Shown one piece after another: positions 39,001 through 45,000 of a DNA stretch of 64,000 bases. The DNA is from Escherichia coli O157:H7 (lineage in GTDB: Bacteria; Pseudomonadota; Gammaproteobacteria; Enterobacterales; Enterobacteriaceae), in assembly GCF_013167455.1 (NCBI RefSeq), contig NZ_CP038328.1; one strand, given 5' to 3'. Every line of letters begins with the position of its first letter. Position 1 is the stretch's first letter. A program made the position numbers.

Positions 39001-42000
39001 CAGTATACCCGTCCTGTGCTTGAACGTTTACTGCTGCGGACCTGGCTGCGGGATGGTGAAGTGTTTGCGCAGATGGTCAGTGGTGCGGGAAACGGTCTGG
39101 AACGGACGGCGGGAGTGCCATTCTGGCTTGAGGCGATGGAGCCGGATTTTGTTCCCATGCGCACTGATGAATCCGCCGGACTGAATCAGGGGGTTTTTCT
39201 TGATGAGTGGGGAAGACCGAAAAAATATCTGGTTTATAAAAATTATCCGGTCAGCGGCCGGCAGAGTGATACGAAAGAAATCGCTGCCGGAAAAATGATC
39301 CACCTGAAGTTCACTCGTCGTCTGCATCAGACGCGAGGCTCATCCATGTTATCGGGGGTGCTGATGCGGATCAGTGCCCTTAAGGAGTATGAGGATGCGG
39401 AACTGACAGCGGCGCGTATTGCTGCGGCGCTGGGACTGTATATCCGTAAAGGTGACGGACAGGACTATGAAGATCCGGGGATCAAAGAGACCGAGCGGGA
39501 AGTCCATATCACCCCGGGTATTATTTATGACGATTTGCGCAAGGGCGAGGATATCGGCATGGTCAAATCTGACCGTCCCAATCCCAACCTTGAAACTTTC
39601 CGCAACGGCCAGTTGCGTGCAGTGGCAGCAGGCAGTCGTCTGAGTTTTTCCAGTGCGGCGCGTAACTATAACGGCACCTACAGCGCCCAGCGGCAGGAGC
39701 TGGTCGAGTCCACGGATGGTTACCTGATCCTGCAGGACTGTTTTATTGGCGCGGTAACCCGCCCGGTGTACCGGACATGGCTGAATATGGTGGTTGCGGC
39801 AGGTCTGCTGAAAATTCCGGCGGATGTGGAGATGAAAACGCTATATAACGCGACGTATTCCGGTCCGGTGATGCCGTGGATCGACCCGGTTAAGGAAGCT
39901 GAAGCCTGGAGAATTCAGATCCGGGGTGGTGCAGCGACAGAATCTGACTGGGTGCGTGCCGGTGGGCGCAATCCGGATGAGGTCAAACGTCGCCGCAAGG
40001 CTGAAATTGATGAAAACAGCAGACTGGGGCTGGTCTTTGATACTGACCCCGTCAACGACAAAGGAGGCAACAGTGCCGGAACTGAACGACAGTATCAGCG
40101 CGACACCGAAAGCCAGCATGAAGAATAAATCCTGGTTCAGGATGCAAGCTGGGGGGCCGGGTGACGCGGATATTTATATTTATGACGAGATTGGTTTCTG
40201 GGGAGTTACCGCGAAGCAGTTTGTCAGCGAACTGAATGCACTGGGTGATATCACCCACATTAATCTCCATATCAATTCACCGGGTGGCGATGTCTTTGAA
40301 GGCATCGCCATTTTTAATGCCCTGAAAAATCAGGGGGCGACCATTACCGTGTATGTGGATGGCGTTGCCGCCTCGATGGCATCTGTGATTGCGATGGCCG
40401 GTGATACGGTCATTATGCCGGAAAATGCCTTCATGATGATCCATAAGCCATGGGGATTCAGTGGCGGGGATGCTGAGGATATGCGCAGTTATGCCGATTT
40501 GCTGGATAAAGTCGAATCGGTACTGTTGCCAGCCTATGCGCAGAAAACCGGAAAAACCACCGATGAAATTGCCGCCATGCTGGCGGATGAAACCTGGATG
40601 TCCGGTGCCGAATGTCTGGCACACGGATTTGCTGACCAGGTGACACCCGCTGTTGAGGCAATGGCATGTATTCAGTCAAAACGTACAGAGGAATTTAAAA
40701 AGATGCCGGAATCCATCCGAAACATGATTACTCCGCCACGCAACAGTGCCCCGCGTGATACCACAGTGACAATCCCTGCACCGGCGGTAACAGAACCATC
40801 ACCGGTACCGGCAGTGTCTGATGAGGCGACCATTCGCGCCCGCGTTATGGCTGAGCAGAAAGCCCGCATGTCAGGCATTAACGATCTGTTTGCCATGTTC
40901 GGCGGTCGCTATCAGACGCTTCAGGCACAGTGCGTGGCTGATCCTGACTGTTCGCTGGAAATGGCCCGTGAACGTCTGCTGAATGAAATGGGCAAGGAGT
41001 CCTCGCCGACCAACAAAAATACACCGGCCCATATTTATGCCGGAAACGGCAATTTTGTGGGGGACGGGATCCGCCAGGCGATGCTGGCCCGTGCCGGATT
41101 TGAAAATGTCGAGAAGGATAACGCCTATAACGGGATGACCCTGCGTGAATGGGCTCGCATGTCACTGACGGAGCGCGGTATTGGGGTGGCCAGTTATAAC
41201 CCCATGCAGATGGTCGGGCTGGCGCTGACGCACAGCACCTCTGATTTTGGCAATATTCTGCTGGATGTGTCGAACAAGGGGCTGATCCAGGGCTGGGAGG
41301 AATCAGAAGAAACCTTCCAGAAGTGGACCCGTAAGGGACGCCTGTCAGACTTCAAAACAGCGTATCGCGTGGGGATGGGCGGTTTTGGTTCTCTGCGCCA
41401 GGTTCGTGAGGGGGCGGAGTATAAATACATCACCACCTCAGATCGCAAGGAGACCATTGCACTGGCCACTTACGGGGAGATTTTCTCCATCACCCGCCAG
41501 GCCATTATCAATGATGATCTGAATATGCTGGTGGACGTGCCGATGAAGATGGGGCGTGCGGCGAAGGCAACGATTGGTGACCTGGTCTACAAGGTGCTGA
41601 CGGATAACCCGAAACTGTCCGACGGTAAGGCGCTGTTCCATGCCGATCACAAAAATATTGCCACCGGGGGGATCTCCGTTTCCGGACTGGATGCGGCCCG
41701 TCAGATGATGCGCCTGCAGAAAGAAGGCGATCGTGCCCTGAATATCCGTCCGGCCTTTATGCTGGTACCGGTGGCACTGGAGACGGTGGCGAACCAGACC
41801 ATCAAATCGGCCAGTGTGAAAGGGGCGGATGCAAACGCCGGTGTCATTAACCCTATCCAGAACTTTGCTGAGGTGATTGCAGAAGCGCGTCTTGATGCGG
41901 CAGACCCGAAAACCTGGTATCTGGCGGCGGCACAGGGCACTGACACCATTGAAGTGGCCTGGCTGGATGGTGTGGACACGCCATACATTGATCAGCAGGA

Positions 42001-45000
42001 AGGTTTCACCACTGACGGCATTGCCACAAAAATCCGTATTGATGCCGGAGTGGCACCACTTGACTGGCGCGGGCTGGTGCGTTCGTCGGTGGCCTGATAA
42101 CCGCGTTATCACAATCACTGCCCGAAAGGGCTTTTTTTATGCCTGAAAAACAGCCCCACAGGGGCTGTCCGGAGAAACAGCATTATGGCGAAAAATTTTG
42201 TACAGGACGGTACCACCATTGAACTGGTGAATGCCGGAGATCAGACCATCCTGAGCGGTGCTGCGGTGGTGGTCGGCAGTATGGTGGCCGTGGCCATTAC
42301 CGATATTCCTGCCGGTGAGGCCGGTGACGGTTTTGCCGAAGGCGTGTTCCTGCTGCCCAAACAGTCTGCTGACGACATTCAGTCCGGCGCGGTGGTTTAT
42401 CTGAAGGACGGGGTTGTGCAGCTGGCTGCAGACGGTGCGGTGGCAGCGGGGGTAGCCTGGGAAAATGCCCCTGCAAACAGCGCCACTGTGGCGGTAAAAA
42501 TCAATGTCTGATCTGTTTACGCGAATGTGTTGCCGGATGGACGTGGCGACCGTTCGGGTGATGGGCAAACAGGCGGAGATTAACGGCGTCGTGTACGACG
42601 TGATGCCGGAGGAAGAGTCCGCGGAGATGGGGGCGCTTTCGGGCAGCCAGTTGTCACTGGTGGTGTTTTCAGCCCGGTACCGTCCGGCCCGTCATGATGT
42701 TGTTGTGTTTGCGGGGCGCACACTGACGGTGACCCGTTATGACACGTACAACGGTAAACCCCGGATTTTTGTCGAACAGGAATGAGTATGGCAATAAAAG
42801 GTCTGGCGCAGGCCATGAAAAATCTGGATGCAATTGATCGCCGTGCCGTTCCCCGGGCCTCTGCCACGACACTGAACCGAGTGGCGGGGGCCATTATTGC
42901 GAAAACGGCCTCTTCAGTTGCCAGGGAGCTGGCCGTTCCCCGTCGTCTTATCCGTGCCCGCATCCGGTTAAGTCCGGCACGACCGGATAAGGTTTACGCA
43001 AAGGTTTACATCAATACCGGCAACCTGCCCGCCATCAAACTGGGGGAGGCCCGCGTTCGACTTTCCCGCAGAAAACGGAGAAAGAAAGGACAGCGTGCGG
43101 CCCTGAAAGGGGGCGGCAGTGTGCTGATTGTGGGGAAAAGACGGATCCCGGACGCCTTTATCACCCGGCTGGCTAACGGACGCTGGCATGTGATGCAGCG
43201 TATGCCGTGGGCATCATCATCCACCGGCGCGGACAGCAAAGGGAGGCCGAAACGCCACCGTCTGCCGATCGAAGTGGTGAAGATTACGACTGCCGGACCG
43301 CTGGCAGAAACCTTTGAACGTGAACGGGACCGGATGTACCGGGAAAAATTACCGGCGCAGATGATGAAAGCCATGACGCATCAGTTACGCCTGGTGCTGA
43401 AAAGAAAATGACTGGGAGGGTGTATGAAACACCGTGAAATACGGGCGGCAGTTCTGTCTGCCCTGAAAGAAAATATTTCTGAGAGGGTGAGCTGGTTTGA
43501 CGGTCGCCCGGTTTTTATTGATGAACAGGAACTGCCTGCTGTTGCTGTTTACCTGACAGATGCGTCTGCTGCTGACGAGTTCGTTGATGAGGGAACCTGG
43601 GAGGCGACACTGCATATTGAGGTTTTTCTCAGGGCAAAAGAACCGGACTCGGCACTGGATATGTGGATGGAAGAAAAAATTCTTCCTGCGCTGGAGGCAG
43701 TTCCCGGGCTCAGTGCATTACTGCTGAAGATGAATCTTCAGGGGTATGACTACCGCCGGGATGATGAGTTTATGATGTGGGGATCGGCAGATCTCCTGTG
43801 GAAAATTACCTACGAGATGTGAGGACGATATGGCAACACCAAATCCCCTTGAGCCGGTAAAAGGTGCCGGTACCACTCTGTGGGTTTACAACGGCAAGGG
43901 TGATGCTTATGCAAACCCGTTGTCAGACGATGACTGGCAGCGACTGGCTAAGGTGAAGGATCTGACGCCGGGCGAGATGACGGCAGAACCCTACGATGAT
44001 AACTACCTGGATGATGAAGACGCGGACTGGACCGCGACCGGGCAGGGGCAGAAGTCTGCAGGAGATACCAGTTTTACGCTGGCCTGGAAACCGGGAGAAG
44101 AAGGTCAGAAAGGGCTTATAGGCTGGTTTGAAAGCGGGGATGTGCGGGCCTATAAAATCCGTTTCCCAAATGGCACGGTGGATGTGTTCCGTGGCTGGGT
44201 CAGCAGTATCGGTAAGGCCGTGACGGCGAAAGAAGTGATCACCCGCACGGTGAAAGTCACTAACGTGGGCAAACCTTCCGTGGCGGAAGAACGCAGCGAA
44301 ATTACGCCGGCCACTGCAATTAAGGTGACACCGACATCCGGTACGGTGGCAAAAGGGAAAACAACCACCCTGACGGTTTCTTTTGAGCCGGAAAGTGCAA
44401 CCGACAAGACGTTCAGAGCGGTTTCCGCCGATCCGTCGAAAGCCACCATTAGTGTGAAAGATATGACAATTACGGTAAACGGCGTGGCGACAGGTAAGGT
44501 GCAGATCCCTGTGGTGAGCGGAAATGGTCAGTTCGCCGCAGTGGCTGAAGTCACCGTTACTGAAGCGGGCGCTGCAGGGTAAACGGAGGTAATACATGTT
44601 TCTGAAAACAGAACAATTTGAATATAACGGTGTGTCCGTCACGCTTTCCGAATTGTCTGCGCTGCAGCGGTTTGATTATATAAAGTTTGTTTCAGACGCA
44701 GAACAACAGGAGACAACGAAGCATGATGTCGTGCACATTAACCAGCGATATCTGGAAACGGCATCCCTGCTTGTGGCGATGTCGCTATGGCATTCCCATT
44801 CCCTCAAAGGCACTCTGGCCTCTCCGGAGACAGAGATGCAGCAGATCCGCCGTGAAGTGATGCTGGGATGGCCTGCTGATGCACTGAATCAGGCAACGAA
44901 CCGGGTGCTTTATCTTTCAGGTATGCTGGATAACCGGCACGATGCCGATCCTGAACAAACCGGTAAAGCAGAAGCGACTGAGTCGGTAACATCAAAAAAG

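Follow-up and report, generated by a model that had tools for sequence, protein, structure and literature searches.

The capsid of Salmonella phage Gifsy-2 reportedly derives from a single protein in which an N-terminal ClpP-like protease is followed by a central domain of ~200 residues, possibly scaffolding, and by a C-terminal capsid protein; its T=7 capsids are said to have been modelled with HK97 gp5 and lambda gpD. Where PMC12315714 and PMC8538268 cite it, this product of a "tripartite capsid gene" (STM1034.3n) is credited to Effantin, Figueroa-Bossi, Schoehn, Bossi and Conway (2010; Virology 402:355). The same tripartite reading has been published for gp5 of Pseudomonas phage MD8 (PMC8508860), and protease-scaffold-capsid fusions have been described, and are routinely annotated, in actinobacteriophages of several clusters (AU, AM, BI, DJ, and CC; EE, AN, AX, FE, CW, and DM) (bioRxiv 10.1101/2020.01.10.891226; PMC7302621; PMC8508860), which share the one-gene idea and to which we draw a likeness by description only. 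Two other publications were set aside as irrelevant to the fusion gene, namely, a preprint on the cyclic oligonucleotide-based antiphage signaling system that deals with a Bas13 protease-scaffold fusion and AGS-C fusions, and a 2026 Nature paper on Gifsy that deals with HepS and tail protein J. Here, we analyzed a stretch of 64,000 nucleotides (nt) of Escherichia coli O157:H7 DNA (contig NZ_CP038328.1 of assembly GCF_013167455.1), hereafter called the window, which carries a prophage with a fusion gene of this kind on its plus strand. Judged by sequence and gene order, this gene is the orthologue of the Gifsy-2 tripartite capsid gene.

An intact fusion gene orthologous to that of Gifsy-2

Scanning the window for open reading frames (ORFs), we found a plus-strand frame that is open from 39926 to 42097 and that, from the ATG at 40118, runs uninterrupted for 659 codons, specifying a precursor of 71.5 kDa. 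The original prediction had placed a prohead protease and a capsid-like region in one ORF of ~660 residues at 40118 to 42097. We confirmed that there is one frame, with no break in the window sequence between these positions, and that both Pfam domains lie in the same polypeptide: the domain search recovered the protease fold as CLP_protease at residues 31 to 176 (E value of 1.7e-36) and the capsid region as Phage_capsid_4, of HK97 fold, at residues 365 to 656 (E value of 8.6e-56), together with an additional weak match to Mu-like_gpT. Since a scaffold-like helical segment lies between the protease and the capsid, the predicted polyprotein is better described as tripartite.

Profiles covering the whole protein agreed with this assignment. 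NCBIfam model NF045540 ([quoted passage not shown]) scored 1004.1 bits, against a cutoff of 475, over residues 17 to 657 and model positions 2 to 651 of 652, and PHROG 133, a profile of 668 positions, scored 1153 bits over residues 2 to 658. Such scores are far above chance. The full-length model match is accompanied by an N-terminal ClpP fold, a C-terminal HK97 fold, and end-to-end homology and synteny with the Gifsy-2 gene. A pairwise BLASTP alignment of 669 columns showed 62% identity to the Gifsy-2 protein over residues 3 to 658, with the three parts in the same order, and the two phages share the gene succession TerS (small terminase subunit), TerL (large terminase subunit), W-like, portal, fusion, decoration, and FII-like. 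Apart from the tail genes, the differences from Gifsy-2 are the host, Salmonella in one case and E. coli in the other, and a length smaller by 37 residues than that of the annotated Gifsy-2 protein, mainly in the annotated N terminus and the linker. The fusion architecture is already known, being reported from experimental work on Gifsy-2 in 2010, curated in NCBIfam and PHROGs, and annotated at the exact coordinates in RefSeq: in a 99.8%-identical O157:H7 prophage, positions 7119..9098 of L003 correspond to 40118..42097 of the window and carry WP_000792357.1 under the NF045540 product name, followed by a "DUF2190 family protein."

Defects are frequent among the prophages of O157:H7, and the insertion sequence (IS) IS1203/IS629 interrupts identical copies of the fusion gene in O157:H7 strains that include EDL933 and Sakai (prophage Sp15). 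One could therefore suspect an artefact or decay, in which a sequencing error, or a mutation in a prophage that is defective, joined adjacent protease and capsid genes. We regard this as scarcely credible, since over 100 divergent protein clusters show the same unbroken architecture, as do 82 phage records (query coverage of at least 80%) and Gifsy-2, Fels-1, mEp460, cdtI, and Pseudomonas F10, and curated full-length profiles of it exist. An exhaustive HMMER search with the fusion protein returned 8201 cluster representatives at E values below 1e-30, and the best 150 clusters consist mostly of full-length fusions of 640 to 750 residues, with identities to the query down to 36%. An origin of the fusion by artefact or decay is effectively refuted. 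Compared with the E. coli lambdoid phages that match NF045540 and PHROG 133, the gene, which is intact in the window, shows no substantive difference save for the IS split in VT1-Sakai/Sp15 and EDL933.

The start codon allows two readings. The ATG at 40118 overlaps the stop of the portal gene (40128) by 11 nt, and an in-frame GTG lies 45 nt farther upstream, separated by a 5-nt spacer from a strong Shine-Dalgarno sequence; its use would add 15 residues. Public annotations differ accordingly: Sakai ECs_2960 starts at 40073, the RefSeq PGAP annotation starts at 40118, and that of phage ASU11 starts further upstream. The ATG is still plausible as the start because the first residue of most distant homologues corresponds to Met1. 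On the minus strand, a 226-residue antisense ORF (41438..42118) lies within the capsid-coding part of the gene and is probably a by-product of coding-strand composition.

A ClpP-type protease domain with conserved catalytic residues

The N-terminal domain extends from approximately residue 17 to residue 180. PDB alignments place Ser86, His109, and Asp173 at the positions of the ClpP catalytic triad. The original prediction had called the domain "ClpP/S49-like"; the first half of this name is borne out by Pfam, by the fold, and by NF045542 ("head maturation protease, ClpP-related"), which scored 224 bits on the protease part against a cutoff of 120, whereas similarity to S49/SppA is weak (TIGR00706, 27 bits against a cutoff of 155). 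As a ClpP-type enzyme, the protease is S14-like in the MEROPS classification.

We evaluated the conservation of the triad in an alignment of 51 full-length homologues. Asp173 (GFADQ motif) is kept in 43 of them and replaced by Thr or Ser in 8, a variation that would suit a dead ClpP-like domain acting as extra scaffold, with maturation cleavage performed by a host protease or not at all. However, Ser86 and His109 are invariant in 51/51 sequences and form part of two canonical ClpP motifs (AASMA and MIHKP, respectively), and the NF045542 score is nearly twice the cutoff, so that an inactive protease appears very improbable, and we retain the domain as a head-maturation protease. Seven homologues that matched in two separate stretches were also inspected. 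All seven carry CLP_protease and differ only in linker length, which ruled out a different protease type in this group. Three short homologues without the protease (P0044, P0092, and P0149) were considered as natural split versions and dropped. P0092, the one of the three that was looked up, is probably a truncated gene call, because it starts 36 nt from the end of a 1.5-kb contig.

A variable linker, a conserved helical segment, and the capsid domain

Conservation in the alignment and an AlphaFold2 model (mean predicted local distance difference test score [pLDDT], 88.4) divide the fusion protein into five parts (Table 1). Proteins of this family are expected to have, between protease and capsid, a central segment of ~150 to 200 residues that is presumed to be scaffolding. 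What we found at this place is a Pro-rich linker predicted to be disordered, followed by conserved helices at residues 236 to 293. The linker (residues 181 to 235) contains 16% Pro, shows the lowest conservation and the most gaps of the alignment, and has pLDDT values below 50 at residues 210 to 233; its disordered portion is preceded by a short conserved motif, F193-x3-P197. Variable as it is, the linker is unbroken in all of the aligned homologues. The middle segment was modelled as three helices (236 to 259, 266 to 274, and 280 to 293) with pLDDT values of 90 to 96. R250 is invariant, F258 and A283 are nearly so, and the NF045541 and PHROG 4523 profiles span this segment together with the capsid domain. 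By position and analogy, residues 236 to 295 may constitute a scaffolding module resembling a delta domain.

Between the middle segment and the capsid domain lies a second flexible stretch, with pLDDT values of 56 to 66 around residues 291 to 310, and from approximately residue 313 two more helices lead into the capsid fold. Stand-alone capsid proteins of the Mu gpT type, which are ~305 residues long (9jod_A and 8rkc_A), align with the fusion protein from approximately residue 373 onward, and the start of the Pfam capsid profile projects to approximately residue 359. From these alignments, the maturation cleavage site or sites would be expected within residues 296 to 364.

The main product is probably the full-length polyprotein

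In lambda, the use of a nested start is established for Nu3, which lies within C (Shaw and Murialdo, 1980, as cited in PMC8508860). By analogy with Nu3 in C, or with gpZ in gene I of phage Mu, an internal start in the fusion ORF could yield a scaffold-capsid or capsid-only product and leave the protease substoichiometric. The best candidate is the in-frame ATG at 40703 (residue 196), which lies just past the protease domain and has a weak AGGA 10 nt upstream. Yet Met196 is present in only 8% of the 51 homologues, conservation of Met residues between positions 180 and 360 never exceeds 25%, and a Shine-Dalgarno scan found no internal in-frame start with a strong site. A Nu3-like nested product is unsupported because the internal Shine-Dalgarno sequences are weak and the internal Met residues are poorly conserved. 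We consider an internal start unlikely, and, from the sequence, the full-length polyprotein is likely the main product.

A decoration protein is encoded downstream

The gene that follows encodes a protein of 108 residues. The small protein described as Gly/Ala-rich in the original prediction is indeed present, although its composition is better termed Ala/Val/Gly-rich (19% Ala, 16% Val, and 11% Gly), and it is a head decoration or cement protein: it matched Pfam Phage_cement_2 (E value of 6.6e-19) and PHROG 122 ("head decoration"), is named "capsid cement protein" or DUF2190 by NCBI, and is 53 to 54% identical to the Gifsy-2 protein encoded at the same position. When the decoration protein was compared by sequence with the PDB, no significant match emerged; only fold comparison was informative. 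The AlphaFold2 model (pLDDT, 90.2) is all-beta, and its best fold match was chain C of the phiCD508 capsid, with a template modelling score of 0.77 to 0.79. It also matched the base of phi29 gp8.5 and capsid chains of T1, TW1, HFTV1, Pam3, and Sf11, and it matched lambda gpD and SHP partially, over 59 aligned columns.

A Gifsy-2-type head block joined to a lambda-type tail block

Lambda and the window prophage follow a common functional logic, with a serine protease of the ClpP/crotonase superfamily, a scaffold (putative in the window), a capsid protein of HK97 fold, and a small protein for decoration, and in both, these genes are preceded by those for a gpA-type terminase, a W-like adaptor, and a portal of the lambda family. 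They differ in that lambda has separate genes, with Nu3 nested in the frame of C and D preceding E, and in that the lambda protease is annotated as S49; the separate S49 protease/scaffold, D, and E genes of a lambda-type head module are not found in the window. In HK97, the protease is the product of a separate gene and belongs to a different family, the shell is a covalent chainmail, and there is no decoration protein. In contrast, the window protease is of the ClpP type and fused in frame, and a decoration gene is present, an arrangement distinct from an HK97-type module with its own protease gene and without a decoration protein. The likeness to HK97 resides in the HK97-fold shell and, presumably, in a scaffolding part that belongs to the precursor of the capsid protein and is cleaved off by a protease of the phage (HK97 background in PMC8508860).

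We compared proteins of the window with those of lambda and Gifsy-2 by BLASTP. Among the head proteins, identities to Gifsy-2 were 36% for TerS (no lambda hit), 67% for TerL (24% to lambda A), 53% for the W-like protein (no significant hit to lambda W; E value of 0.09), 64% for the portal (21% to lambda B), 62% for the fusion protein (no hit to lambda C, Nu3, or E), 53 to 54% for the decoration protein (no hit to lambda D), and 39% for the FII-like protein (no lambda hit). With an E value limit of 0.1, BLASTP matched neither the fusion protein nor the decoration protein to C, Nu3, D, or E of lambda. Among the tail proteins, Z was 52% identical to lambda and 29% identical to Gifsy-2, U was 55% and 53% identical, V was 80% and 56% identical, and G was 42% and 31% identical, respectively; H was 50% identical to lambda, the only comparison made for this protein, as the Gifsy-2 sequence covered just the start of the gene. 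By these identities, Z, V, and G clearly resemble their lambda counterparts more than those of Gifsy-2, and a head block of the Gifsy-2 type is joined to a tail block of the lambda type; the boundary falls after the FII-like gene and before Z. These results agree with the predicted departure from the lambda C/Nu3/D/E arrangement in spite of a lambda-like tail (42 to 80% identity to lambda for Z, U, V, G, and H) and with the mosaic head/tail combination proposed on that basis. GGGAAAG, the slippery heptamer of lambda G-T, was also scanned for; no copy lies in the G/T region, and the heptamer is not enriched.

Table 1. Positions of the fusion gene, its parts, and neighboring genes in the window
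Feature	Coordinates	Strand	Basis
Terminase large subunit gene (gpA type)	36294..38417	+	Pfam GpA_ATPase and GpA_nuclease
Portal gene (lambda family, Gifsy-2-like)	38626..40128	+	Phage_portal_2, TIGR01539
Candidate alternative start: Shine-Dalgarno AAGGAGG and in-frame GTG	40061-40067; 40073-40075	+	Sequence, Shine-Dalgarno scan, Sakai annotation
Protease-putative scaffold-major capsid fusion gene	40118..42097 (stop included)	+	Intact ORF, NF045540, PHROG 133, RefSeq WP_000792357.1
ClpP-type head-maturation protease domain, residues 1-180	40118..40657	+	
Catalytic residues Ser86; His109; Asp173	40373-40375; 40442-40444; 40634-40636	+	
Variable Pro-rich linker, predicted disordered, residues 181-235	40658..40822	+	Conservation in alignment, AlphaFold2
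Conserved helical middle segment, residues 236-295	40823..41002	+	AlphaFold2, family conservation
Second flexible stretch, residues 296-312, and pre-capsid helices, residues 313-364	41003..41209	+	
HK97-fold major capsid domain, residues 365-659	41210..42094	+	
Head decoration/cement protein gene, 108 residues	42185..42511	+	Pfam, PHROG, NCBI name, fold
Gifsy-2-family FII-like head-tail joining gene, last of head block	42504..42785	+	PF13856, weak Phage_attach
gpZ-like tail gene, 209 residues, intact here	42782..43411	+	Pfam Minor_tail_Z

Proposed assembly and maturation

Taken as a whole, the locus very probably encodes a Gifsy-2-type polyprotein that unites a ClpP-type protease, a scaffold-like segment, and an HK97-fold capsid protein and that would undergo self-processing. 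Under this proposal, the full-length precursor of ~71.5 kDa would assemble on the lambda-family portal into a procapsid whose shell is formed by the capsid domains, with the N-terminal protease and scaffold parts facing inward, like the delta domain of HK97. Concentrated within the shell, the protease domains would use Ser86 and His109, possibly together with Asp173, to cut the flexible region upstream of approximately residue 365 and would then digest themselves and the scaffold part. The fragments would exit, and the residual capsid protein, which we infer to be ~32 to 38 kDa, would expand during DNA packaging; the 108-residue decoration protein would then bind the expanded shell and stabilize it, as Gifsy-2 suggests for the binding. 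We estimated that ~415 copies of the internal part of ~39 kDa would occupy ~2x10^4 nm3, less than half of the interior of a T=7 procapsid. This rough estimate of our own, which takes over the T=7 geometry as an assumption, supports the feasibility of housing both protease and scaffold inside. Two points weigh against the proposal: the cleavage position is bracketed by comparison with the stand-alone capsid proteins rather than pinpointed, and the N terminus is uncertain, as either the ATG at 40118 or the GTG at 40073 may be used.

The fusion would also set a 1:1 ratio of protease to capsid protein. It is conceivable, although we hold it rather doubtful, that every capsid subunit comes with a protease of its own that works essentially a single time, either in cis or on directly adjacent subunits inside the shell. 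If so, both the dosage and the encapsidation of the protease would be secured without a separate targeting signal, and the 1:1 stoichiometry (~415 protease domains for T=7) would represent a self-limiting maturation route distinct from those of HK97 and lambda. Such a scheme would extend the work on Gifsy-2 and would not define a new kind of system.

Other features of the prophage

The prophage is bounded approximately by an integrase gene with an Arm-DNA-binding domain on the minus strand (11322..12608) and, near the other limit, by plus-strand genes for Lom and a side tail fibre with collagen repeats (54177..56154). Host-like genes appear from ~57.5 kb, for example, one for a LytS-type histidine kinase (57541..59241, plus strand). 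The early/immunity region contains, in a patch of low GC content (0.38 to 0.40 at ~18 to 22 kb), a minus-strand gene for a 535-residue SIR2_2-domain protein (19143..20750) that matched the PADLOC candidate antiphage family PDC-S25 over its full length with 781 bits and showed weaker ThsA-like SIR2 matches; it adjoins a 242-residue ORF on the same strand (20857..21585). A plus-strand cluster of tRNA-Met/Arg/Arg genes (29763..30014) is followed, after ~500 bp, by an ORF on the same strand for a NanS-p-type sialate esterase (30526..32472) with SASA, DUF1737, and DUF6645 domains. This is the region in which Stx-converting phages carry stxAB; the ORF scan found no ORF of at least 150 residues between 27852 and 30526 of the window.

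Occurrence, annotation, and significance of the fusion gene

The DNA of the fusion gene matched 2069 of 5426 complete E. coli genomes, and over a stretch of 20 kb, the window shares 99.8% identity with prophages from O157:H7 and further Shiga toxin-producing E. coli strains. As this stretch, which includes the head-tail combination, recurs at a coverage of at least 80% in 520 E. coli genomes, the combination is common. The gpZ-like counterpart is annotated as frameshifted in a 99.8%-identical prophage of O157:H7 strain ECP19-598. The window prophage looks like a less decayed version of its type, because its gpZ-like and fusion genes are intact while they are frameshifted or IS-disrupted elsewhere.

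We also searched phage genomes with the fusion protein by tblastn; all of the matches given here cover its full length. Phage ASU11, induced from E. coli O80:H2 with mitomycin C, showed 100% identity, VT1-Sakai and 1720a-02 showed 99.8%, and several (long-tailed) Stx2-converting phages and CP-1639 showed 97 to 99%. Identities were ~77% for mEp460, cdtI, Tritos, LLS, mEp213, and mEp043, 64% for Fels-1, 62% for Gifsy-2, and 58% for Pseudomonas phages of the F10 type. Public records label the protein "major capsid protein," "head maturation protease," "protease/scaffold protein," "Clp protease," "head-tail preconnector protein Nu3," or "terminase protein." With such inconsistent labels, the capsid gene of these phages may escape automated surveys; a product name that states all three functions keeps prophages of this kind from seeming to lack one.

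The finding has little value as a discovery, and its practical value lies in annotation. The fusion gene family is very common and includes Stx1- and Stx2-converting phages, which makes the gene a useful marker of a Gifsy-2-type head combined with a lambda-type tail. The fixed 1:1 stoichiometry of protease and capsid protein that the fusion would impose is an under-studied question of phage assembly.

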